Of a stretch of 64,000 bases of DNA, positions 1 through 64,000 are shown piece by piece. This DNA is from Candidatus Moraniibacteriota bacterium (GTDB lineage Bacteria; Patescibacteriota; Minisyncoccia; Moranbacterales; GCA-2747515), in the NCBI GenBank assembly GCA_027031495.1, contig JALVQA010000006.1, forward strand, positions 81,535 through 145,534. The letters are read 5' to 3'. Below the pieces are notes generated by a model. It was not told the DNA's origin, made no database searches, and worked only from the letters and a program-made list of their open reading frames with translations. Position 1 is the first letter of the stretch; the number at the start of each line of letters is the position of its first letter. A program made the translations under genes and the position numbers.

Positions 1-1
1 G

Positions 2-460
2 GTGGTAACCACACGTCGTGATGATGGTGCTGTTCTCTTTACACATCGTGGCGATCTTGCAGCGATTGCTTTCTATGACGGTGACAACGCAACTGTCATG
101 CCGGCAAATGCTGTGAGTTTTGCATTACAACGTTTTCTTGATAATCGCTCACAGAACGTTATTGATCTTGGGATTACATATAAATCTGTTGACGGTGATG
201 TGCATAAAAAAGGTATTCACGAAAATAGTGTTATAATAGAGACAGTCAATGCTATAAATATGCTGGCTGGTGTGCAAAGCGGTGATTACATTACAAAAAT
301 TGATGGCGAAGAACTTTCTTTTTCTCGCACACTTCCTGTTATCATTGACGAAAAGCGCAACGTGAAGAAAGTTGATGTCACAATTGTGCGTGATGGTATT
401 GATATGATTATTCCTCTTACAATACAAGAAAAAACGCATAATTTGACACCGCGTAAATGA
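2..460 (+). CDS. C-terminal fragment (5' end outside window) of a HtrA/DegP-like serine protease, PDZ domain portion
   Basis: ORF open at window start; PDZ-like motif LAGVQSGDYITKIDGEEL preceded by trypsin-fold-like GITYKSVDGD..SVIIETV; directly upstream of ftsZ. Confidence 0.45.
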   Translation: MVTTRRDDGAVLFTHRGDLAAIAFYDGDNATVMPANAVSFALQRFLDNRSQNVIDLGITYKSVDGDVHKKGIHENSVIIETVNAINMLAGVQSGDYITKIDGEELSFSRTLPVIIDEKRNVKKVDVTIVRDGIDMIIPLTIQEKTHNLTPRK

Positions 461-502
461 ACGTGGTAGTGTATAATATTGTAGAATTCAACATTTAGCT
501 CT

Positions 503-2059
503 ATGGCAGAAATCAAACCAGATATAGAAACATTTGCACGTATTAAAGTTGTTGGCGTCGGTGGCTCCGGTAATAATGCTGTAACACGCATGGTTGAAGA
601 GAAAGTTGGTGGTGTTGAGTTTGTTTCCATTAATACTGATGCGCAGGCGCTTCATAATTCAAAAGCATCGGAAAAGATTCACATTGGCAAAAATCTGACA
701 AAAGGTCTTGGTGCTGGTATGAATCCTGAAGTTGGGCGACAGGCGGCAGAAGAGAATCGTGACGAAATTCAGGATGTGCTCAAAGGTGCTGATATGGTGT
801 TTATCACGTGTGGTATGGGTGGTGGTACCGGCAGTGGTGCAGCGCCGATTGTTGCTGAAGTTGCCAAAGAATCCGGAGCGTTGACAATTGCTGTTGTGAC
901 AAAGCCATTCATGTTTGAAGGCATGCAGCGCAAGCGCATCGCTGATGAGGCAATTGAGAACATGCGTGAGCGTGTTGATACATTGATTGCCATTCCTAAT
1001 GATAAATTGCTTAATATTATTGATCGCAAAACATCACTTGTTAATGCTTTTAAGATTGTAGATGATGTATTGCGTCAAGGCGTGCAAGGCATTTCTGATC
1101 TGATCACAAAGCCTGGTATTGTCAATGTTGACTTTGCTGATGTGCGCGCCGTGATGGCTGATAGTGGTAGCGCGTTGATGGGTATTGGCGTCTCAAGTGG
1201 CGAGGAACGTGCAATAGAGGCTGCGCGCGCAGCTATTAACTCACCGCTTCTTGAACTTTCTATTGATGGTGCGCGCGGTGTTCTCTTTAATGTGAGTGGT
1301 GGCAGTGATCTAACGATGATGGAGATTTCTGAAGCTGCCAACATTATCACGGAATCTATTGATCCTGATGCACGTGTTATCTTTGGTGCGACACCTGATG
1401 ACACTGTTAGAAAAGGTGAGATCCGCGTCACTGTTATCGCTACGGGGTTTGATGATCGCGGCACGTTCGCATCAACGGAACAGAGATTGTCACACATTGC
1501 ACTTAAGAGATCAGCGCAAAATTCAAATACGCGCAACGTTTCCGTGCAACAAGCAGTACAGCAAAGTGCATCATCTGGCGTGCATGAAAAGGAAAGTGTT
1601 GCCACAGGCGGCGGTGATAGTATAGGTTTTGCGTCATCGCCTCAAAAGATATCACAACAACCGCCTGCACCGCAACAGGAGCAGCAACGTTCACCGCAAC
1701 CACAGTCACAGGTGTCGCAGACACAGCAAGAACGCCTATCTGATGATGCGCAACAAGCACTATCCAAAAAGCCTGCAAGCATTGCACAAAATGATGGCTT
1801 TGTGCATCGTGCGGTACAGACAGCATCACCGGACATCAATGAGAGCATGTCTGTGTCAGATGAGAAAGATAGTCGTGATGATGATGGTTCTGCAACACCA
1901 CTTTTGCAACGTATGACGTTTCCGCGTCGTAAAAAAGCACTTGAACCGGAAATTATTATCAATGAACGTGTTGAAGAAGCGCCTATAAAGGATGATGCAC
2001 TTCCTGATGAGGATGAGTTTGAGATTCCTGCATTTATTCGCCGCAAACTTGGAAAATAG
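503..2059 (+). CDS. ftsZ: Cell division GTPase FtsZ with long Q/P-rich C-terminal extension
   Basis: Tubulin/FtsZ signature [13 protein letters not shown] and [15 protein letters not shown]; 518 aa vs ~380 typical, extra length is low-complexity Q/P/S-rich linker before C-terminal [11 protein letters not shown] peptide. Confidence 0.95.
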
Positions 2060-2142
2060 ATTTTTTGATAAAAAACATCTGCGTTGTAGGTGTTTTTTAT
2101 GTGATGCATTTTTAGTATCTAATTTTTTGAATTTGTATTCTT

Positions 2143-2373
2143 ATGAGGATTATTGCCTCCGTCGTGACACGTGCACGTTCAGTGTCTGTAGAAAAAATGG
2201 CAGATGGTATGTATAAGGTGCGTGTGCGCGCCGTGCCGGAGAAGGGACGAGCGAATGATGCCGTCTGTGTGGCGCTTGCAGAATATTTTGGCATAACACC
2301 AAGCGCCGTACATATTGTTGCCGGTGCGACGACGCGCAAAAAAATGATTGATATTGATGGTATTGATGCATAA
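2143..2373 (+). CDS. YggU/DUF167 family small protein
   Basis: 76 aa; pattern VRVRAVPEKGRANDAVCVALAEYFGI..SAVHIVAG..R.K typical of UPF0235/YggU. Confidence 0.55.
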   Translation: MRIIASVVTRARSVSVEKMADGMYKVRVRAVPEKGRANDAVCVALAEYFGITPSAVHIVAGATTRKKMIDIDGIDA

Positions 2374-3886
2374 ACACGTTTTCTTTGTTGGTTTCATAGG
2401 TGCGTTTCTTTGTGGTATCGTTGTGGCTGTTTTTGTGCCACAGTGGGCGTGGCTTGTTGCAAGTTTATGCGGTGTGTGTGCGCTTTTTTATATTCTTTTT
2501 GCGCCACGTTTTTATATCGGTTTATATGTTGGCGTTCTTATTATCGGTTGCTTTATCGGGGTTGCACGTGGTAAATCTGCCTATGAATCAGCGCATGCAC
2601 CTCGCATATATGACAATACGTCAGTTACGGTTTATGGCGTTGTCCTAAATGACCCTGTGGAGAGCGCATACAGCAAGCGAGCAATTATTGGTGTGCGTTC
2701 GTGTTCAACAGGGCAACATGCTCCCATCTGTGCTGTAGATAAGATTCTCGTACGCACACACCTCTATGAAAATACTCTCTCTGCACGCAGTGGTGTAAAA
2801 TTTTCATGTACACTTAAGCGTATCAAAAATTTTACGCAGGATTTTGATTACATAATGTACCTTGCTGCAAAAGGTGTGTTTTACGAATGTGTTCCCAGTG
2901 ATATAGTGGCGTGGGAGAGTACGCGTCTTAGTGATCGCTTCCATGCTCTTCTTGCGCGTGTGCGTTTGCATTTTGAGCGCGTTATTACGCACAATGTAGC
3001 GCATCCGCAGGCAGCGCTTGCTGCAGGACTCCTCTTTGGTGGCGACAAGCGTCTTAGTGAAGCGTGGCAGGATAATTTTTCTGCAACAGGCCTTACGCAC
3101 ATTGTGGCTGTAAGTGGTTATAATGTTACTGTCATTACACATGCACTTATCCTTTTTGGCATTTTTTGTGGCTTGTGGCGGTGGCAGGCACTATGGCTTG
3201 CGCTTGTTGGTGTTGTTATCTTTGTGTTAATGATTGGCGCGCCGACACCGGCAGTGCGTGCTGGCATTATGGGCATAATTGTGCTTTTGCTAATGTATAG
3301 CGGACGTGTGAGTGCGGCATTTTCATCTCTTCTTCTTTCCGCTGCCATTATGCTTTTTGTTAACCCTCTTCTTGTTCGCTATGACATAGGTTTCCAATTA
3401 TCGTTCCTTGCAACATGTGGCATTATTACGATTTATCCGTTATTTGAGCGTATAAATATACGACGGAATGCCGCATTTGGCATGTGGGATATTATTTTTG
3501 CAACAGTAAGCGCGCAATTGCTCGTCGTACCGATTATTGCTTATCATTTTCACGTGTTCACGCCACTTTCACTTATAGCAAATGTACTTGTTTTGCCACT
3601 TATTCCTGTTGCAATGGCGCTGACATCCGGCATGCTTCTTGCAAGTATGCTAAGTCCCCTCATTACACTTTGGAGTGGATGGTTTATCAGTATTCTTCTT
3701 GCATGGGTTTTTGGTGTTGTTCATTTTTTTGCACATGTGCCATATGCACAGATAAAAATAGAAACCGTGCCACCATTTTTGCTTGTACTATGGTATGGTG
3801 GAATGAGCATATTTATTTTGCTCGATAGATGCAATCAATATAAGTGTACACACAAAGAGAGAAAGAATATATGCGAAAAGGTATAG
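2348..3886 (+). CDS. comEC: ComEC/Rec2-family DNA internalisation channel, membrane domain (N-terminal part of a split comEC)
   Basis: Polytopic membrane protein with competence-domain motif GLTHIVAVSGYNVTVI; overlaps next ORF by 43 nt. Confidence 0.8.
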   Translation: MILMVLMHKHVFFVGFIGAFLCGIVVAVFVPQWAWLVASLCGVCALFYILFAPRFYIGLYVGVLIIGCFIGVARGKSAYESAHAPRIYDNTSVTVYGVVLNDPVESAYSKRAIIGVRSCSTGQHAPICAVDKILVRTHLYENTLSARSGVKFSCTLKRIKNFTQDFDYIMYLAAKGVFYECVPSDIVAWESTRLSDRFHALLARVRLHFERVITHNVAHPQAALAAGLLFGGDKRLSEAWQDNFSATGLTHIVAVSGYNVTVITHALILFGIFCGLWRWQALWLALVGVVIFVLMIGAPTPAVRAGIMGIIVLLLMYSGRVSAAFSSLLLSAAIMLFVNPLLVRYDIGFQLSFLATCGIITIYPLFERINIRRNAAFGMWDIIFATVSAQLLVVPIIAYHFHVFTPLSLIANVLVLPLIPVAMALTSGMLLASMLSPLITLWSGWFISILLAWVFGVVHFFAHVPYAQIKIETVPPFLLVLWYGGMSIFILLDRCNQYKCTHKERKNICEKV

Positions 3887-4731
3887 TATTCATTATTGGC
3901 GCAGCAGTGCTTTTATCTTTTGTTATCGCAATTGTTGCGATAGCTGCAGAACAGACACGACAGACGCGTGTTATCTTTCTCGATGTTGGGCAAGGTGATG
4001 CGATTCTCATTACACGTGGAACACAGCAGGTTTTAATTGACGGCGGTGCTGATCGTCGCGTGCTTCTTGAAAAACTTGGGCGCTATATGCCGTTTTGGGA
4101 CAGAACAGTTGATGTACTGATTGCAACACATCCAGATGCCGACCACATCGCTGCACAGGTTGGCGTATTTGATGCATACTATGTTGGTGCTGTTATCGCA
4201 ACCGATGCTTTTAAGAAATCACGTGTCGCTACGGCGTGGCACAGCGCGTTGGAGAAGAGTCGTGCACGTGTCATTATGGCGAACGAATCTGTTCGTATAC
4301 ATATGAAGAAAGATGACGAGAAGGCTGGTGTTATGCGTGTACTTTTTCCGCGTGTAGCGACAGATGTGCCGGCGATAAAAGATGTTAATGATACAAGTAT
4401 TGTAACGTTGCTAACAGTCGGTAAAACAACATTTCTTATGATGGGTGATCTATCACAAAAGCAAGAACGCAATATTAATCCAGGTCCGGTAAGTGTTCTA
4501 AAGGTTGGCCACCATGGCTCAAAGACATCAAGTAGTGAAGAGTTTATTGCGCGTGTGCATCCACATGATGCAATTGTTTCTGTCGGCGTGCACAATCGCT
4601 ACGGACATCCGGCGCAAGATGTTCTTGCACGCCTTAAAAAGTATGGCGCACATATCATACGCACAGATAAGCAAGGTGATATTGTTTATATGTGTTTTTT
4701 TGAAAAAAATGATGTGTGTGAGCGGTTATAA
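3844..4731 (+). CDS. Membrane-anchored metallo-beta-lactamase domain protein (ComEC C-terminal domain encoded as a separate ORF)
   Basis: N-terminal TM helix then VIFLDVGQGDAILI, HPDADHIAA, KVGHHGS, HNRYGHPAQDVLARL motifs of the ComEC MBL domain. Confidence 0.75.
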   Translation: MYTQREKEYMRKGIVFIIGAAVLLSFVIAIVAIAAEQTRQTRVIFLDVGQGDAILITRGTQQVLIDGGADRRVLLEKLGRYMPFWDRTVDVLIATHPDADHIAAQVGVFDAYYVGAVIATDAFKKSRVATAWHSALEKSRARVIMANESVRIHMKKDDEKAGVMRVLFPRVATDVPAIKDVNDTSIVTLLTVGKTTFLMMGDLSQKQERNINPGPVSVLKVGHHGSKTSSSEEFIARVHPHDAIVSVGVHNRYGHPAQDVLARLKKYGAHIIRTDKQGDIVYMCFFEKNDVCERL

Positions 4732-4750
4732 TTATTTTTAGAGAGTGCTC

Positions 4751-4782
4751 TTGACAACGTACAAAGTAGTGTTAGTATAAAT
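4751..4782 (+). promoter_or_regulatory. Sigma70-like promoter (rRNA P1): TTGACA 4751-4756, -10 TAGTAT/TATAAA ~4773-4781
   Basis: Consensus -35 with 16-19 nt spacer to AT-rich -10, ~500 nt upstream of 16S. Confidence 0.5.
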
Positions 4783-4828
4783 ATGGAGTTGACAGAGAAT
4801 GTTGTATTGGAATGAGTTTTTTAAGGGG

Positions 4829-4856
4829 TTGACAAGGAAAAAAACTTTGCTACAAT
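4829..4856 (+). promoter_or_regulatory. Sigma70-like promoter (rRNA P2): TTGACA 4829-4834, 16-nt spacer, TACAAT 4851-4856
   Basis: Near-consensus hexamers with ideal spacing upstream of 16S leader. Confidence 0.55.
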
Positions 4857-5274
4857 ACGTAGTGCAGTGTATAGATATGTCGATTGTTTGACGATCTATT
4901 CTGCTCTACAGAGGAAGGAGAATGAAATTACATTCTTGTACATCATGAGTTGTGATGTGTTGGGATGTGTTTTTATTCACTCTGTAAGAATAGGAACACA
5001 GTAGAACATTGACAATGTGATTACGTTTATTCAAGAAATGATAACCTTCTGAGGTTAGTCTTGAGACTAAGAGCGAGGACCTATTCTCTTGTTGCATTTT
5101 CTTTTGGAAAATGCGGTGTTCCCCTACATCTCTTTATCTGCATCAGATAGAGAATGTTGTTTCTTACCAAGCGATAGGAAACATCTTACAATAAGTGTAA
5201 GAAGGGATTCGCGTATCCGTAGGCATCTTTGTCTGTGTATTGTGGAAGCGAGCAATACACCGTGTACGGTCGCT

Positions 5275-6864
<1,590 letters not shown>

Positions 6865-7000
6865 TAGGGAGTTATGGTAGTACGACTCGTCGCACGACGA
6901 GTTAGTCAAACCGAACGGTCGCTTAATCTACTATTTGTAGTGGATTAAATCCTCCTCTTAGATGAGAGACTAACCTCAAAAGATTTGTGATTTCTTGAAC

Positions 7001-7028
7001 AAAAAACCGGCATTTTGCCGGTTTTTTT
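7001..7028 (+). terminator. Intrinsic terminator after 16S (CCGGCA-TTT-TGCCGG + T7)
   Basis: A-tract, 6-bp GC stem, T-tract. Confidence 0.7.
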
Positions 7029-7100
7029 GTTCAAAGTGTTGTTGTTTGCTAGTTACATATAATTAATTTGCATGAAATATTGTGATGGTGTATTATTATA

Positions 7101-57293: not shown

Positions 57294-57575
57294 ATCTGAG
57301 CATTTACAGCGGATACGCGTCCGCGTCAGCGCTCACCCTAGAAAATAAAAAAACTGCCGTTTGGCAGTATTGTTGTTGTTATTTATACAGAAAGGTCGGA
57401 CAACTCAAATTGTGCGACATAATATAAATATCAAAACAGCACAATTTCAGAAGGATAAGAACGTATTGTTCCTCTATTTATTTTTTTGCAAGAGAAAACT
57501 TTTTTACAATTTCTTGATAGATCCACTTTCATTCATTACGCCACACAATCAAAAAGTTTGTGTGTCCCTTGTTTC

Positions 57576-58176
57576 GTTTCTACTCCTCTCTTTTAAAGGA
57601 TGTTTCTAAAACATAAAAATATGATACAAAAGCGAAAGGGGGTGAGTTTCTACTCCTCTCTTTTAAAGGATGTTTCTAAAACCGCACCGTGACGAAGTCA
57701 CGGAGTGCGCTCTCCGTTTCTACTCCTCTCTTTTAAAGGATGTTTCTAAAACTCAAACTCCGCAACGCGCTCATCGTGTGTGTCTTGTTTCTACTCCTCT
57801 CTTTTAAAGGATGTTTCTAAAACCTGACGCCTCCACCTATGACGCGCGCGCGCTCGGTTTCTACTCCTCTCTTTTAAAGGATGTTTCTAAAACAAACGGA
57901 CGAAAAATACGGAAATTTCTCATAATGTTTCTACTCCTCTCTTTTAAAGGATGTTTCTAAAACATGCGGTTCGTGAAGGACTACTACACGAATTCTGGTT
58001 TCTACTCCTCTCTTTTAAAGGATGTTTCTAAAACTTTTTGTGCGAGGTATGAAGTTACACATGTACTAGTTTCTACTCCTCTCTTTTAAAGGATGTTTCT
58101 AAAACAGGTGTTACGTAAGCAGTTGCGCCGAGAAATTGAGTTTCTACTCCTCTCTTTTAAAGGATGTTTCTAAAAC
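57576..58176 (-). CRISPR. CRISPR array, 9 identical 37-nt repeats GTTTCTACTCCTCTCTTTTAAAGGATGTTTCTAAAAC (plus strand), 8 spacers of 33-35 nt. Inferred to be transcribed on the minus strand from the cas2-proximal side
   Basis: Repeats at 57576, 57646, 57716, 57787, 57857, 57927, 57998, 58069, 58140; 5-nt partial repeat GTTTC at 57571-57575 at the prophage-proximal (trailer) end. Confidence 0.95.
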
Positions 58177-58345
58177 CGCAAGATATGGCGTACTTAAGGC
58201 AAAAACGCTGTTTTCATTGTAAAGCATTTTCGCGTATTTTTGTGTAAAATCCCTTTTTTGAGCCATTTCTTGTGTGCAAACCTTGTAGCAGATCATTTTC
58301 ACAATTACTGCCTTTTCCAAAGGTTTTGCGCGATTTATGAATATG

Positions 58346-58500
58346 AGAAAGAAAAACTGCTTGCAGTATGCACACCGTAAGCAGTTTTTCACATCCTTTG
58401 AAAGAGAGGCGCTTTATGCGCCATCATTCCCCGTTTTTAGTAGCGGAGAATGAGCACAAAGGGTCGAAACAAAATGGAATGACCCCCTGTATCTTCAGTA
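58346..58500 (-). ncRNA. Candidate tracrRNA: anti-repeat (58384-58412) immediately followed on the minus strand by hairpin ACTGCTT/AAGCAGT (58356-58385) and T-tract; upstream hairpins GCGC-TTTAT-GCGC and GGGTC..GACCC
   Basis: Inverted degenerate repeat copy complementary to repeat nt 1-28 (GTTTT and ACATCCTTT-N-AAAGAGAGG), 3' terminator; boundaries approximate. Confidence 0.4.
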
Positions 58501-58511
58501 TATAACGTCTT

Positions 58512-58829
58512 CTAAAAAATCGCAATATGCGGTTCATCATAAACGCGTGACGTTGTTCCGTAGCGGCGGATACGCTTCTCAATTGATTGTGGAATCGGAA
58601 TAATGATCAATGCTTCGTCTTTTTTGTTTTTTACGAGAAATTTACTGTGCTGCAGACGTGCCATAAATTCACGTTTCCGTGCCGGTGTGAGAAAAAATTC
58701 AAAAATTGAATATTGTGTACGCACACCGAATTCTTCAAGGATTTTAACAAGACGTCGTCGCCGACGATCATCTGACACATCAAAAGCAACAAAAAATCTT
58801 TCTCTTTGCGCACTCATACGCGCTTCCAT
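58512..58829 (-). CDS. cas2: Cas2
   Basis: 105 aa; ERFFVAFDVSDDRRRRRLVKILEEFGVRTQYSIFEF Cas2 N-terminal pattern. Confidence 0.85.
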   Translation of the reverse strand: MEARMSAQRERFFVAFDVSDDRRRRRLVKILEEFGVRTQYSIFEFFLTPARKREFMARLQHSKFLVKNKKDEALIIIPIPQSIEKRIRRYGTTSRVYDEPHIAIF

Positions 58830-59812
58830 TCAAATGGCTTAAAGGTATCGCGATCACCAATGAGAATCTGTGCAAGTTGACGCACATCACGCTCCATGAG
58901 CGCTACAAGTGTGCGGTTTTCCGCAAAGTGATCGTAGCGAATAAACCGTGACCACTTTGGAAAAAACGTTCCGTATCCGTGTCGTGAGAGCGAAACGACA
59001 CCACCATCATCTGTTGTAAAATCTTTCTGTGTAAATTCTCTACGATTGACGCTACGCAACACAAAATATTCAATTGGTCCACGATAAATTTCCAAGAAGT
59101 CACTTGCAAGCGCGGCATGGCCGTATTTTTGATCATGGAGAAAGCCAACATATGGATCAAGACCAACGATCATAATATGTGTAACGAGTTCCGCGTGAGC
59201 AAGTGTATAGCAAAAACTTAAAAGCGCATTTAACGGATCGGTTGCCGGATGCTTTATGCGTCCGGGAAATACAAAGTCCGCATTATTTTTAACAAGTGAC
59301 GCATCTCGCCATATGCGAAAGTACTGACGTGCTGCAGTACCTTCCATGCCACGTATAGTATCAAGTGATAAATTTTGAGATACATTATCCGGCAATGTAT
59401 TAAGACGTTGCGTTGCACGCATCTTTTTTAATACACGATTTTGATTGATAATCTTACCACGCACAAATGTATATGCCATTTCTCGCCGCTTTTCTTTGTC
59501 ATCGTGCCACTTAAATTGCGCATGACGCAGAAAAACATTTTTTGTGTAATCATAGAGCACGGAAGCGACAAAACGGCCTTTACCATCTATAAAGTGAATT
59601 GGCACGTGATTTGTACGTGCCAATGATAACACTTTATTTGTGAGTGTTACATCACCGAAAATTACAATATCGCGCGTTGAAAGCGCTGGAAATTTTTCAC
59701 GTATATCACCAGCTTTTGTGCGAATGGCAAAATTTTGTCCACTTACACTGAGTGTGTCATCAAAACGTGCGCGATAATAGACCGTTGATTTCCCTTCCGT
59801 CAATAACGTCAT
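58814..59812 (-). CDS. cas1: Cas1
   Basis: NALLSFCYTLAHAEL and GLDPYVGFLHD hallmark Cas1 motifs; 332 aa. Confidence 0.9.
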   Translation of the reverse strand: MTLLTEGKSTVYYRARFDDTLSVSGQNFAIRTKAGDIREKFPALSTRDIVIFGDVTLTNKVLSLARTNHVPIHFIDGKGRFVASVLYDYTKNVFLRHAQFKWHDDKEKRREMAYTFVRGKIINQNRVLKKMRATQRLNTLPDNVSQNLSLDTIRGMEGTAARQYFRIWRDASLVKNNADFVFPGRIKHPATDPLNALLSFCYTLAHAELVTHIMIVGLDPYVGFLHDQKYGHAALASDFLEIYRGPIEYFVLRSVNRREFTQKDFTTDDGGVVSLSRHGYGTFFPKWSRFIRYDHFAENRTLVALMERDVRQLAQILIGDRDTFKPFEWKRV

Positions 59813-59856: not shown

Positions 59857-60453
59857 CTATAAATAACACAAGTCACGGAAACAACATCCGTCACATCTTG
59901 CATCACGGTGTTGCGGAAAATCATGTGGGTCAAGCAAGTCTTTTTGTAAACGTTTGTAGACAGCATCAGCAAGTACTATTGCTTCTTTTTGCTCATCATC
60001 GCCAAGCGTGTATCGCTTTCGCTGGCGATCGCCGGTAAAGAAAATTTCACCATACGTAAGATGTGATGATGAAAACATTTCACGCAGACACAGTGCTTGC
60101 AGGGCGAGCTGTTGGCGATGTGCAGGATTTGTACGCTTTTTACCACGCTTAAATTCAACCGGCACAATTACATTGTGCGGATAGAATTCTACAACATCCA
60201 CTACACCACTGATACCGTACTGTCGCGAGTAAATACGCAATGATGATTGTACGCGTAGAGCATTGCGATGACGTGTATATGGTTTATCCACCACGCGATG
60301 CGCCGCACGACCATCTTGGATATATGTATTTTCATCTCGCACACGTGGTGCGTCCGTCAGGAGATAGTAGGTGCTGCGCGGGCAATATGCATACTCAGCA
60401 ATGAACGATAGCGGAATAAGTGGTCGGTCAGTCTGTGGTGCTTTCTGTGACAT
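59857..60453 (-). CDS. cas4: Cas4 (RecB-like nuclease with Fe-S Cys cluster)
   Basis: N-terminal YAYCPRSTYY and C-terminal CDGCCFRDLC; overlaps effector stop by 26 nt. Confidence 0.85.
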   Translation of the reverse strand: MSQKAPQTDRPLIPLSFIAEYAYCPRSTYYLLTDAPRVRDENTYIQDGRAAHRVVDKPYTRHRNALRVQSSLRIYSRQYGISGVVDVVEFYPHNVIVPVEFKRGKKRTNPAHRQQLALQALCLREMFSSSHLTYGEIFFTGDRQRKRYTLGDDEQKEAIVLADAVYKRLQKDLLDPHDFPQHRDARCDGCCFRDLCYL

Positions 60454-63400
60454 GGCGTTTGGCGAACTGTGGTGATTTCAGCATAAAGAGTTTTAGTGTG
60501 GAGAGAATGCCCTTTTCCGTACATGCGACAAGCTCTTCCTCTGTTGCAACTAACTTGAAGTAGTACTTTAGTGCGATGTTTTGTGCAGCTTGTTCGTCGG
60601 CATCGCATGATGCGCCACAGTACTGACAGTGAAATTGCGCTTTTTGTCCACGACCATAATTCTCTTCATTTTCTGTACGCTGTGCCAAATGAATTGCTGC
60701 GAGAATCTCACGAAGTGTATATGTGTCATCACTAAGATTGCAACGTACATGCGCGTCAGTACCATCACTAAATGTTAGATGTAGTGCGTTGTTAGTAACT
60801 ATGATTGACTGATTGTTGTTATTCTCTCTAAAATATCGCTCAACTTCATATGTTGTACAGTATCCACAAGCACGACAGGTTTGCGAGGTTTTTGCCGCAC
60901 CGATGACAGCGCCAATCTGTGCATACTTTACACCCCAGATATGTGCGCGCACCGCAGCATCTGCTTCATTACTCGTACCACTGATAATATCTGCTGTTTT
61001 GAGTGTCTTGTAGAGTTTCGCAATCCGCTGTCCCCCACTCTCAAAGCCGTCCACAGAGTCTTCGTAAATCGGAATCGCATTGTACTTCAGTGCCAACGCG
61101 TGGATTTGATTGCGCACCGTACCGGCGGCCAGTTCGCGGATTTTTGCCAGGTGCGTTGTCGGGCGTGTGAAGAGTCCGGCGCTCTGCGTGTCGCGCCATG
61201 ATGCCGCTTCTGCGCGCATCTGTTCCAAATACGGCACTTCTATGAAACTGCTTTCCACAAACTGTTCTGTGCGCGGATCAAAGACGGCGTAGCCAAAGCC
61301 ATATTCGCCAAGGTCGATGCCCAGGAGCATTTGCTCGCGGCGATACTGTTTTTGATTTTTTCCATCGGCGTTGCGGAGGCAGATATTCGCACCTTCCAGA
61401 CACCGCGTCTCCTCCACAACTTCTCCATGGCGGTCACCATCACCTTTGGCGATGGAAAACGGCAGTGCCCAGTAGAGTGTTTGTTTACCGGGAATGATTT
61501 GCACAGCGCCATCTGTATCACGATGAACGTTTTGAACTTGTTCGTAGATGATTGATCCGCCCTGGATGCTCTCTACCAGTTGCTCCGTGCGATCACCCCA
61601 CAAAAAGCGCTCCAAGAATTGCTTTTGCACGCGGGAGGTTTCCAGTGGGAGGCGGTAGTAGTAATATCCGCCAATCGTCCCGTTAACAGATGCACGCGAA
61701 ACATGTTTTGGCTTAAAAACAGATTTCTTTTGTGATTTTTCAAAGAAAAGTCCGCTATTTACCTGTGACAATCCTTCTATCGGTAGTTTTGTACACAGAA
61801 TCATTGCCCAGCGATGTGGCAATTCACCCAATACACGCGTTAATGCGCGTGCATCGCTTGCTGATGTGGTCTTCAGTCTTTGCCAAATGTGCGTTGCGAT
61901 TTCTTGCGGCTCGCTTGTCGTGTCAATATCCTGTGTGCGCAAGATATTTTGCGCTTCCGTGGAGAGTTGTTTTTGTTGTGCAAAACGCTTCTTGAGGCGC
62001 TTTTGCGCACGCCGGTAGCGCCGGCGTTGCGGTGCAGTCATTTGCCGCAAATCATCATCAGATTTTTCTGTGAAAGACATTTCGCCCCATGACAATGGAA
62101 TGTACTCAAGAATACTTTGCTCACCGTTTGTAACTTGCAAAACGACACGGTCAATATAGGATGTGCGTGACAATAGCGAGAGTTTTCCGCGGATTTCAGT
62201 GCCGATTGCAGCGGCGACAAATCGTTGGAAGTGTGTGCGCGGCATATCATCACTACGCACTGTACCATTTTGCGGATTACTGTACAGCAAATTTGCAAGT
62301 TTTCGTTCACGCAATATACGCCACTGTGGCCGCTCGGATGGTAGATGAATATTTTTTGGCAACCAACGCAACTGCAATCCCCAATATATTTTCAGTAATT
62401 CCCCACCATCAATATTGATTGGTTTTTGTGGTTGGTTGAGATAAAAGAGATCTTTGATTATTCGCTTATCTGTGAGTTGATTTAGTTTAAATGTCACACC
62501 AAAATCATGTAAAAACGTTTTTGGGTCGTATAAAAGATTTTCGCGCAGTGGCATCGGCGTATAGTGAAAGCGATGGTATGGTGTCACAAGAAAACGCAAA
62601 AAACGGCGATCTTTGGTGTGCCACCACTTCTTGAGATCATCACTCTTTTCGTGATTATTTATGGCGTCCCAATCAATATATCGCTCCAAAAATGCCCATA
62701 CCGGTGCGCCGTCACGCATACGCAGAGCGAGATCCTTCAATCGTTCCAGTGTTTTGAGTGCGTGGGCACGACCGTTTTTGCGATATTCTTGACCAAACCA
62801 TTCAGTGCGCAAATGCTCACGATCTTCATTGGATAGTAAGTTACGTTGATGTGCTGTAGTAATGAGATCTTGGCCGGCAAGAACAAGGTCTACTAATTCC
62901 TCTGCCGCATTCTCAATTATTTTTGCCGGATCACGTTGTGCCTGTTTGATAAACCGTGGGTAGCGCTCCAGCGCGCTTGGAATCATGGCTTTCTTCCAAA
63001 ATCCGATAATGTTTTGGTCGGTGTCGCGTGTTGATTCTTTTGCCTCACTTTTTTTCTTTTTCCGATCAACTATTGCATCAAACACATCACCAAAAAGTTC
63101 TTTCTCATCCGTATTGTTATGTATGGGAACACCTTCATTGTTCCACTTTGCTAAAAACTCGCGAAATTCCTGCAACACGTCAGTATAGTCGTCCAAAAGT
63201 TTGCCAAGATTTTTGCTTCGTTTTTGCAACGCTTCAGCAAGACGTGGTTGTAACTCGCGTAATAATTCAAAGTTCATTACTTGTTCTTGCGGAAATAGTC
63301 TTCTGTACGCCGTTTTAGCAATTGTATCAAAGATTGCGCGATGCGTCCTGGCGTTTTTCCGGGTATCACCTTCAGTATTCTCCACAAGATGTGCTTCGTA

Positions 63401-64000
63401 ATCATTGAGGCGGTTTTCAAAGTTGGACAACCATGACTGCAATCGTCCGCCAACAAGTGTACGGTAATCTGCCCAATTTATACGAAGAAATTCCACATCC
63501 TTTGCAACAGGAATTTTAGTAGCATACTCATGAACACGTTCGGCTAAACGTCTCAAATAGTGTGGATTCTGCGCGAAAAATGCCGGGTTTCCACGCGCTA
63601 TAAGAGATGTCGCATCTTCTACCGATGCGCGAAAAGTTTCTAGTGCATCACCCCAAAGATTGCTTAGTGCATTTTGATTATCTGCAACGCCAGCAAGACT
63701 TTGAATTGTTCGCATGCCGCTCGTTTGGTGCATTGCCGGCAACAGATGTTCAAAATAAGCAGTGTAGATATCAATTGGCTGTACGCATCGCGTGGATAAA
63801 AGCTCTTCACTCATTGGGAGAATAATGAACGTGTTTTTATCTTGTTTGACAGCAATGGGATTTGTTATACCGAATATTTTTTGCAACCCCTCGCCATCAA
63901 CAACATTGTGTTTGCGGGCATATGCAACAAATGCATCATTGATCTGTTTGATTATCGGATAGTCTCCTATATTATCTTTCGTAACTCTGTCCTCTGTAAA
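60428..64000 (-). CDS. cas12: Large Cas12-family (type V) effector, N-terminus beyond window (>1190 aa); RuvC-I GIDLGEYGFGYAVFD, RuvC-II IPIYEDSVDGFESG, zinc finger CRACGYC...CQYCGASC, RuvC-III DADEQAAQNIALK
   Basis: Split RuvC in C-terminal third with Zn ribbon between RuvC-II and III (TnpB/Cas12 architecture), no HNH; frame continues open from TTG at 63886 to window end. Confidence 0.8.
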   Translation of the reverse strand, partial: FTEDRVTKDNIGDYPIIKQINDAFVAYARKHNVVDGEGLQKIFGITNPIAVKQDKNTFIILPMSEELLSTRCVQPIDIYTAYFEHLLPAMHQTSGMRTIQSLAGVADNQNALSNLWGDALETFRASVEDATSLIARGNPAFFAQNPHYLRRLAERVHEYATKIPVAKDVEFLRINWADYRTLVGGRLQSWLSNFENRLNDYEAHLVENTEGDTRKNARTHRAIFDTIAKTAYRRLFPQEQVMNFELLRELQPRLAEALQKRSKNLGKLLDDYTDVLQEFREFLAKWNNEGVPIHNNTDEKELFGDVFDAIVDRKKKKSEAKESTRDTDQNIIGFWKKAMIPSALERYPRFIKQAQRDPAKIIENAAEELVDLVLAGQDLITTAHQRNLLSNEDREHLRTEWFGQEYRKNGRAHALKTLERLKDLALRMRDGAPVWAFLERYIDWDAINNHEKSDDLKKWWHTKDRRFLRFLVTPYHRFHYTPMPLRENLLYDPKTFLHDFGVTFKLNQLTDKRIIKDLFYLNQPQKPINIDGGELLKIYWGLQLRWLPKNIHLPSERPQWRILRERKLANLLYSNPQNGTVRSDDMPRTHFQRFVAAAIGTEIRGKLSLLSRTSYIDRVVLQVTNGEQSILEYIPLSWGEMSFTEKSDDDLRQMTAPQRRRYRRAQKRLKKRFAQQKQLSTEAQNILRTQDIDTTSEPQEIATHIWQRLKTTSASDARALTRVLGELPHRWAMILCTKLPIEGLSQVNSGLFFEKSQKKSVFKPKHVSRASVNGTIGGYYYYRLPLETSRVQKQFLERFLWGDRTEQLVESIQGGSIIYEQVQNVHRDTDGAVQIIPGKQTLYWALPFSIAKGDGDRHGEVVEETRCLEGANICLRNADGKNQKQYRREQMLLGIDLGEYGFGYAVFDPRTEQFVESSFIEVPYLEQMRAEAASWRDTQSAGLFTRPTTHLAKIRELAAGTVRNQIHALALKYNAIPIYEDSVDGFESGGQRIAKLYKTLKTADIISGTSNEADAAVRAHIWGVKYAQIGAVIGAAKTSQTCRACGYCTTYEVERYFRENNNNQSIIVTNNALHLTFSDGTDAHVRCNLSDDTYTLREILAAIHLAQRTENEENYGRGQKAQFHCQYCGASCDADEQAAQNIALKYYFKLVATEEELVACTEKGILSTLKLFMLKSPQFAKRHVTESTTD

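Follow-up and report, generated by a model that had tools for sequence, protein, structure and literature searches.

We have analysed a 64,000-nucleotide (nt) stretch of DNA from a Candidatus Moraniibacteriota bacterium (contig JALVQA010000006.1; the whole stretch is referred to here as 'the window'), and in particular the interval that separates cas2 from a CRISPR array (short palindromic repeats, clustered and regularly interspaced). From sequence evidence, and with a probability that we put at roughly 0.8, this interval encodes on its minus strand (~58490-58346) the trans-acting partner RNA of the adjacent Cas12d-like effector; that is, a tracrRNA (trans-activating CRISPR RNA) or a scoutRNA (untranslated RNA of short complementarity). 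It looks like a hybrid of the two, with a predicted pairing to the repeat that is tracrRNA-like and a predicted 5′ end that is scoutRNA-like. Read along the minus strand, the locus runs cas12d-cas4-cas1-cas2-RNA-leader-array. A partner RNA is an established requirement of the Cas12d family, and finding one here is expected. An earlier note on this DNA had proposed a candidate tracrRNA in the interval; the proposal now appears well supported by strand-specific signals, by homologous RNA in related loci (labelled L001 onwards) and by an anti-repeat that, in ten other loci, has changed along with a different repeat.

In the minus sense the 37-nt repeat of the array reads GTTTTAGAAACATCCTTTAAAAGAGAGGAGTAGAAAC. 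The plus-strand sequence at 58384-58412, GTTTTTCACATCCTTTGAAAGAGAGGCGC, had been described as an inverted, degenerate copy of this repeat matching at about 23 of 29 positions, and this is what we find: local alignment places the plus-strand segment ACATCCTTTGAAAGAGAGG (58391-58409) on repeat nt 10-28 with 18/19 matches, and AAAAC (58384-58388) adds a match to repeat nt 1-5. The alignment scores 34; among 171 other 335-nt chunks of the window, taken on both strands, the highest score is 26 and the average 17.5. The energy check suggested in the same note gives a concordant picture, RNAduplex returning -30.8 kcal/mol for the RNA with its own repeat against -15.7 +/- 2.6 kcal/mol for shuffled repeats (z = -5.8); 24 or more nt are paired with the repeat in the window, and up to ~31 in relatives. 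Cofolding the 145-nt RNA with the first repeat and spacer yields -82.6 kcal/mol, where the two RNAs on their own give -65.8 kcal/mol; the heterodimer is thus favoured by ~17 kcal/mol, and the repeat:anti-repeat duplex forms while P1, P2 and the terminator (Table 1) are kept. A direct-repeat match, D7 (58387-58406 against 63491-63510, 85% over 20 nt), lies at its other end inside the effector gene and was set aside as a two-copy chance match.

The minus-strand RNA from 58511 to 58340 folds to -60.8 kcal/mol, compared with -37.1 +/- 4.1 kcal/mol for dinucleotide shuffles (z = -5.7; 0/200 as good). Moving along it from the 5′ end, a sigma-70-like TTGCGA-17-TATACT site (58525-58497) would set the start of transcription at ~58490, the base of hairpin P1; by eye, equivalent TTGAC(T/A)/TTGCAA-17-TAnnnT sites occupy the same place in L001, L005, L006, L007, L008, L011, L015 and L024. 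No part of the RNA is better conserved than P1, which includes the GGGTC-N15-GACCC element (58461-58485); the earlier note had listed this element as a mere extra hairpin, and in topology it resembles the core of a scoutRNA. That hairpin and the second one claimed beside it (58408-58422, P3 in our nomenclature) were both located where they had been placed. Between them lies P2, whose loop CUACU could pair with AGUAG of the repeat (nt 29-33); we take this match as chance, the loop of the close relative L001 being GGAA. P3 reads GACGC/GCGUC in L001, with both sides changed, and the L001 repeat has G28 to A. The anti-repeat (58391-58409) is single-stranded in the predicted fold of the free RNA, except for its first two bases.

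Beyond the anti-repeat, the hairpin (58352-58389) and U-tract (UUUUUCUUUCUC) of the intrinsic terminator previously proposed for the minus strand are present, and a GC-rich hairpin with a U-run stands at the same place in most relatives. Because this hairpin follows it, the anti-repeat is internal in the predicted primary transcript; the suggestion that it forms the 3′ end of the tracrRNA would hold only after processing. A permissive scan of 57300-58900 against Rfam families returned chance-level matches only (best E = 0.15).

Contigs carrying homologues of the effector were located by exact-protein look-up and by collection scans. Besides the window, 12 distinct loci have exactly one homologous RNA each (L001/L023, L002, L005, L006, L007, L008, L011, L015, L017, L018, L020 and L024); L024 is without an array, so that 11 other loci have both RNA and repeat. 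The effectors of the relatives are 35-75% identical to that of the window, with the exception of L020 at 26%. Every related locus that extends past cas2 carries the RNA at the same place (window, L001/L023, L002, L005-L008, L011, L015, L017, L024), in a shared order of promoter-like site at the cas2 stop, P1, variable hairpin, anti-repeat, and GC-rich terminator with U-run; the contigs of L009, L012, L019, L021, L022 and L025-L027, which end before the relevant region or are without adaptation genes nearby, are uninformative. Across loci the P1 loop follows the consensus YUUUACAUUUUGUUUC. A covariance model of P1 (R1) matches the window at 58452-58493 (39.7 bits, E = 3e-6) and gives one match per related RNA locus (31-45 bits), with nothing else at E < 0.01 in 284 kilobases (kb). 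Covariation in the P1 stem scores 0.407, against 0.20 +/- 0.05 for shuffles (0/500) and at most 0.21 for slid partners, and 11/13 sequences fold with the stem enclosing the conserved loop.

The evidence that weighs most is intermolecular. Across these loci, repeat-to-repeat identity is only 32-84%, and the RNAs change with the repeats. Cognate RNA:repeat duplexes range from -27 to -40 kcal/mol, with z scores of -3.8 to -8.5 versus shuffled repeats (11 loci including the window), with pairing in the relatives spanning repeat nt 1 to ~31 and the terminal AGAAAC always left free. Among the matches listed, the cognate repeat is the best partner of each RNA, the one exception being L001, where the effector is 75% identical to that of the window and the RNA ties between its own repeat and the window's; here the change of repeat G28 to A is answered by C to U in the RNA. 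In L018, where the array is inverted and upstream, the RNA stands after the effector gene, ~6 kb from the array and on the effector gene's other side, and keeps a 19-nt anti-repeat to the correct repeat sense. That locus (1-7070) has an alternative layout: cas4-cas1-cas2 and the array are inverted upstream of the effector, whose stop is immediately followed by the RNA, and next comes a gene for tRNA-Thr (6995-7070, minus strand).

We also see a possible second contact, made by the P1 loop. Its 3′ side carries a candidate 'dock', GUUUC, opposite the GAAAC that ends the repeat, and this exact complement is found in 8/12 loci with a known repeat, a count that speaks for pairing potential only. 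The dock takes the wobble form GUUUU in L015, and in L018 it is GUUUG opposite a repeat that ends in CAAAC rather than GAAAC, a compensatory change. From these sequences we infer a dock-anchor pairing, or pseudoknot, at the 3′ end of the repeat.

Table 1. Predicted and annotated features of the locus (window coordinates)
Feature	Position	Strand	Details
Cas12d-like effector	60428-64000	-	N-terminus cut by the window end; full protein P0001, 1346 amino acids (aa)
cas4	59857-60453	-	PF01930, TIGR00372
cas1	58814-59812	-	PF01867 (238 bits), TIGR00287
cas2	58512-58829	-	Pfam PF09827, TIGR01573; stop codon 58512-58514
-35-like hexamer TTGCGA	58520-58525	-	In the last cas2 codons, just upstream of the stop; consensus scan
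-10-like hexamer TATACT	58497-58502	-	Consensus scan; 17-nt spacing
Predicted primary transcript, tracrRNA/scoutRNA-like	58346-58490	-	~145 nt; fold z = -5.7
Hairpin P1	58456-58490	-	Stem ACAGGGGGUC/GACCCUUUGU, 10 base pairs (bp), around conserved loop AUUCCAUUUUGUUUC (58466-58480)
Candidate dock GUUUC	58466-58470	-	3′ side of P1 loop; complements GAAAC, the five nt that end the repeat
Hairpin P2	58425-58452	-	CAUUCUCCG...CGGGGAAUG; variable hairpin at this position in all relatives
Hairpin P3	58408-58422	-	GGCGC-AUAAA-GCGCC; 3′ strand overlaps the anti-repeat start
Long anti-repeat	58391-58409	-	CCUCUCUUUCAAAGGAUGU; pairs with repeat nt 10-28, one C.A mismatch
Distal anti-repeat AAAAC	58384-58388	-	Pairs with repeat nt 1-5 (RNAduplex); shared with the terminator stem
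Intrinsic terminator	58345-58389	-	12+5 bp hairpin AAAAACUGCUU...AAGCAGUUUUU (58352-58389), then UUUUUCUUUCUC (58345-58356)
CRISPR leader	58177-58344	-	~170 nt; conserved motif GGTTTGCA ~105 nt upstream of the first repeat
CRISPR array	57576-58176	-	9 identical 37-nt repeats, 8 spacers of 33-34 nt

Saying this, several observations weigh against the interval encoding a partner RNA of this kind, or against parts of that assignment. The promoter-like and terminator-like sites are consensus matches only, if on the correct strand and conserved in position. The window's anti-repeat overlaps both P3 and the terminator stem, so its pairing with the repeat must compete with structure inside the RNA itself. 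As regards the dock, L007 and L008 deviate from complementarity, its support from change between loci amounts to one compensatory change (L018) and one wobble (L015), and the conserved P1 loop could be purely a protein-binding motif. Among the relatives that carry the P1 module, L020 (2613-8201) is the most distant; it has cas4-cas1-cas2, 37-nt repeats and an effector of 1561 aa whose Cas12d-model score, 239.5 bits, falls just short of the cutoff. Its P1 hairpin retains the common loop motif, but a significant long anti-repeat is lacking (z = -0.7); long pairing is hence not universal, and L020 may represent an intermediate or an ancestral, scout-like state. Finally, in the canonical Cas12d locus L028, R1 found no match at the scoutRNA (~4915-4975) and only a weak one inside the effector gene, and so kinship with scoutRNAs rests on topology and locus context rather than on sequence; the inter-gene region of a further locus, L029, is masked by Ns and is uninformative for R1.

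The effector fragment in the window, which is 100% identical to P0001, passes the NCBIfam cutoff for Cas12d (NF033951: 348 bits for the fragment and 366 bits for P0001; cutoff 250), whereas the Cas12c and Cas12e models give ~96-102 bits (cutoff 250) and 39.6 bits (cutoff 200), respectively, and the family-model scan gave no Cas12b match. The likeness is mostly C-terminal, the best stretch against the Cas12d profile being residues 939-1305 of P0001 (profile positions 801-1179). An exhaustive phmmer search of 1.84 billion representatives returned ~20 full-length relatives of 1250-1475 aa (counted as representatives at 50% identity) at E < 1e-100, below which there is a sharp drop to proteins that match query residues ~880-1150 only; three tested members of this latter group are canonical Cas12d, at 700-970 bits across the full model. 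It is only via these residues that phmmer reaches canonical Cas12d, at E = 1e-41 or weaker, and neither phmmer nor the Cas12d profile showed full-length similarity to canonical CasY. A sequence search of the PDB with the effector gave Cas12c structures and no detectable Cas12d chain. As judged from sequence, then, the protein is a divergent branch of Cas12d/CasY that passes the NCBIfam Cas12d cutoff. The name Casdelta was considered for its clade and rejected, as Casdelta denotes unrelated, tracr-free effectors of 867-936 aa (PMC12721324). Literature searches found no description of this Cas12d-like lineage, with the proviso that the primary scoutRNA paper or its supplements might include such loci.

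Published work describes Cas12d as needing a scoutRNA, encoded beside the array and in the same direction, whose 'dock' of 3-5 nt base-pairs with a repeat 'anchor' (bioRxiv 10.1101/2023.12.12.571249; PMC9522604). The canonical Cas12d/CasY scoutRNAs (e.g. KbCas12d/CasY.1), which serve effectors of the same family by NCBIfam, offer a close comparison; they share with the window RNA a position beside the array and a common direction (bioRxiv 10.1101/2023.12.12.571249). The published KbCas12d scoutRNA is AAAGGGUUUCCAGUUUUUAACUAAACUUUAGCCUUCCACCCUUU (KbCas12d supplementary sequences). In this RNA, as in that of L028, a stem surrounds a U-rich loop with the 3′ end GCCUU opposite AAGGC of the repeat, where the window has GUUUC opposite GAAAC; UUCCA at the start of the loop is common to the Kb scoutRNA and the window, and (A)UUCCA to the window and L001. 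The canonical RNAs show no detectable similarity to the window RNA in sequence or by covariance model. Their complementarity to the repeat does not exceed chance (z = -0.9 in Kb and -0.7 in L028, versus -5.8 in the window), and with at least 24 paired nt the window RNA goes beyond the short complementarity alone by which scoutRNAs are defined. The loci differ as well: canonical ones have cas1 only, ~26-nt repeats and 17-19-nt spacers (in L028, cas1 only, a 25-26-nt repeat and 17-18-nt spacers), against cas4-cas1-cas2, a 37-nt repeat and 33-34-nt spacers in the window, and the window effector resembles canonical Cas12d mainly in the C-terminal RuvC/TNB region. In L028 itself, the scoutRNA-like element (4906-4990) comes after the last spacer and starts with a degenerate copy of the repeat (TCACCAAATTTTAAAGGG versus CACCGAAATTATTGGTG); on the evidence of this element, canonical scoutRNAs may derive from a terminal repeat.

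Other guides provide further points of contact. In the cryo-electron microscopy structure of Cas12c2, an RNA originally named a scoutRNA makes contact, through several paired segments, with most of the repeat that is retained, including a pseudoknot with the spacer-adjacent repeat bases, and has been argued to be a tracrRNA (PMC9522604). This multi-segment pairing is analogous to the long duplex, short proximal segment and loop dock that we propose for the window RNA, although in Cas12c2 the three duplexes are short (4-7 bp), whereas in RNAs of the window type one duplex alone has 14-21 bp. The tracrRNAs of Cas12b, Cas12f and Cas12g combine a long repeat/anti-repeat duplex with a short pseudoknot duplex (PMC11246509), to which the long duplex of the window RNA and its candidate ~5-bp duplex with the repeat 3′ end would correspond; in these guides and in those of Cas12e/CasX, as in the window RNA, a 5′ scaffold precedes the anti-repeat and the crRNA (CRISPR RNA) handle adjoins the spacer, and a position between cas2 and the array is a further likeness to Cas12b/Cas12e-type tracrRNA loci. 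Their scaffolds are unrelated to that of the window RNA in both sequence and structure. The arrangement had previously been likened to that of Cas12b and CasX single guides: the guide architecture is indeed alike, but the effector is Cas12d-like and neither Cas12b nor CasX. With the tracrRNAs of type II (Cas9) systems, the window RNA shares a long, near-perfect, co-evolving anti-repeat, its own promoter and an intrinsic terminator (both putative here); in type II, however, the anti-repeat is 5′ and the scaffold hairpins 3′, whereas the window RNA has a 5′ scaffold, and only the terminator comes after its anti-repeat. The window effector, as a Cas12 protein with a single RuvC domain, is also unlike the type II enzyme. 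The length of the window's repeat:anti-repeat duplex is a further likeness to type II, and should suffice for a substrate of ribonuclease III (RNase III).

We envisage that transcription would begin at a sigma-70-like promoter belonging to the RNA gene and situated where cas2 ends (processing of read-through from the cas operon being possible too), and would stop at the intrinsic terminator, ~170 nt before the array. Of its two modules, the 5′ scaffold, composed of P1 and the variable hairpins, is probably what the effector recognises, whilst the long anti-repeat would pair with nt 1-5 and 10-28 of each repeat in the pre-crRNA. The GUUUC of the P1 loop would then reach across to the last five bases of the repeat, by the spacer, giving the dock-anchor topology of a canonical Cas12d scoutRNA and a loop-dock pseudoknot similar to the short duplex found in the guides of Cas12b, Cas12f and Cas12g. 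The effector would bind the P1/P2 scaffold together with the duplex of pre-crRNA and partner RNA, and the crRNA would be matured within or beside that duplex, either by host RNase III or by the effector; at 14-21 bp the near-perfect helix should be long enough for RNase III, unlike those of canonical Cas12c and Cas12d. The mature guide, consisting of the retained 3′ handle of the repeat and a 33-34-nt spacer, would direct DNA targeting. The sequence features, the fold, the conservation and the joint change of anti-repeat and repeat are observed; that the RNA is transcribed, which enzyme processes it, and that cleavage requires it, we infer.

Four other explanations of the interval deserve consideration. 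It might be no more than the 3′ untranslated region (UTR) and terminator of the cas operon followed by the distal leader, with the inverted repeat fragment a fossil devoid of function, such as might remain from a past rearrangement of the array; it does lie directly after cas2, and its hairpin and U-tract would end the cas operon too. A fossil would decay, yet the anti-repeat stays complementary to repeats that differ by up to ~60% in 11 loci, is part of a structured RNA that is conserved together with its promoter-like site and, in L018, still matches its own repeat although the element has become detached from both cas2 and the array. An RNA derived from a 3′ UTR would in any case still count as a tracrRNA. 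We regard the fossil account as very improbable. A regulatory antisense RNA, acting on pre-crRNA or repeat DNA to control array or cas expression and having no structural role in the guide, would fit the long complementarity and the location between cas operon and array, and autoregulation by the long form of the tracrRNA in type II-A systems would provide a precedent. A simple antisense RNA would have no use for a conserved 5′ scaffold of scoutRNA-like topology, however, and Cas12d enzymes are known to need an array-adjacent partner RNA; regulation and guide function are also not mutually exclusive. We consider a purely regulatory role unlikely, if a little less so than a fossil.

An element acting as DNA, bound for instance by the Cas1-Cas2(-Cas4) integrase or by a leader-binding factor that sets the boundary of the leader, would account for the near-constant distance to the first repeat (leader of 167-174 nt in 10 loci), and co-variation with the repeat is also what a shared protein-binding site would be expected to show. 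Against this stand several features that are strand-specific and proper to RNA (a promoter-like site, a terminator with its U-tract, and three hairpins that show compensatory changes) and the L018 element, found ~6 kb from its array and across the effector gene; the chances of this explanation seem to us slimmer still than those of a fossil. The last alternative, that array and partner RNA are transcribed from the plus strand with a crRNA repeat sense of GUUUCUACUCC...CUAAAAC, takes its plausibility from the symmetry of complementarity, which cannot tell the strands apart. The plus strand has no terminator-like site after the hairpins, though, and its single promoter-like match (58398-58427) is inside the element, whereas the minus strand has a conserved terminator and, preceding P1, a conserved promoter. 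In the minus sense, moreover, the 37-nt repeats of the clade all end in (U)AGAAAC by the spacer, as expected of a Cas12 5′ handle, and in L020 the degenerate terminal repeat is at the array end far from the RNA. We judge plus-strand transcription to be the least probable of the four, and a minus-strand partner RNA of the Cas12d-like effector remains our preferred interpretation.

Turning to the leader, its length of 167-174 nt holds for the window, L001, L002, L005-L008, L011, L015 and L017, and in 8/10 of these loci a regular expression allowing <=2 substitutions finds a GGTTTGCA-like box 104-107 nt upstream of the first repeat (at ~58273-58283 in the window). In L005 the expression gave another site, and by eye the exact core GGTTTGCG is ~104 nt from the repeat; in L006 it gave no match at 104-107 nt from the repeat. 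We considered GGTTTGCA as the array promoter, which is unsupported, a -10 element at proper spacing being present in some loci only; the box may instead be an integration or host-factor site. Two gene calls fall in this region: a mechanical minus-strand open reading frame of 82 aa in the window (58144-58392), which runs across the first repeat, the leader and the terminator, and a 40-aa gene within the leader in the public annotation of L004 (16203-16325). Both cover leader and non-coding RNA sequence and are probably spurious.

No target of the spacers was found at <=5 mismatches in the rest of the window or in any fetched locus. Immediately beyond the distal end of the array (window below ~57300, equivalent to L004 17176-24041) is a prophage-like block of genes, including SLT_3, ERF recombinase, HTH_36, RNase_T, DUF1064 and a large terminase, and none of the eight spacers matches this adjoining block at the same threshold. 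A perfect palindrome, ACTGCCGTTTGGCAGT (57353-57368), with flanking T-runs on both strands, lies between the array end and the next gene and scores as a terminator in both directions.

The metagenome-assembled genomes (MAGs) that hold the relatives are labelled Candidatus Peribacteria, Gracilibacteria, Alphaproteobacteria and 'Rickettsia'; the environmental MAG contigs L013-L016 are titled 'Rickettsia typhi', 'Rickettsia sp.' or 'Rhizobium sp.', species-level names that look doubtful for metagenome bins. Three of the related loci have an extra gene between the effector and the adaptation genes, encoding an NYN-domain protein in L006 (4312-4791), an Abi_2-like protein in L008 (2979-3629) and a DUF3800 protein in L007 (9174-9866).

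What we consider new is the combination of a long, co-evolving anti-repeat and a scout-like hairpin, in a lineage with a full adaptation module, 37-nt repeats and long spacers. A wider proposal, that these loci represent an undescribed Cas12d-related lineage whose chimeric guide joins a scout dock hairpin to a Cas9-style anti-repeat, forms an evolutionary link between tracrRNA and scoutRNA and probably depends on RNase III, we put forward tentatively and at somewhat under even odds. For work on how Cas4-Cas1-Cas2 integrates spacers, the constant ~170-nt leader with its fixed GGTTTGCA box provides a defined substrate. For the uncharacterised large Cas12d-like nucleases with 33-34-nt spacers, the RNA would supply the missing component of the guide and hence the design of a single guide. 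One RNA here holds both a scout-like dock hairpin and a long anti-repeat, where L020 and canonical Cas12d keep short complementarity only, and this coexistence opens to direct test both which way evolution ran and whether RNase III is needed. It bears on the question, posed by Cas12c and Cas12d, of whether scoutRNAs form a class of their own or are tracrRNAs in reduced form. The RNA family of the window would extend the tracr/scout continuum seen with Cas12c2 to a duplex of Cas9-like length.

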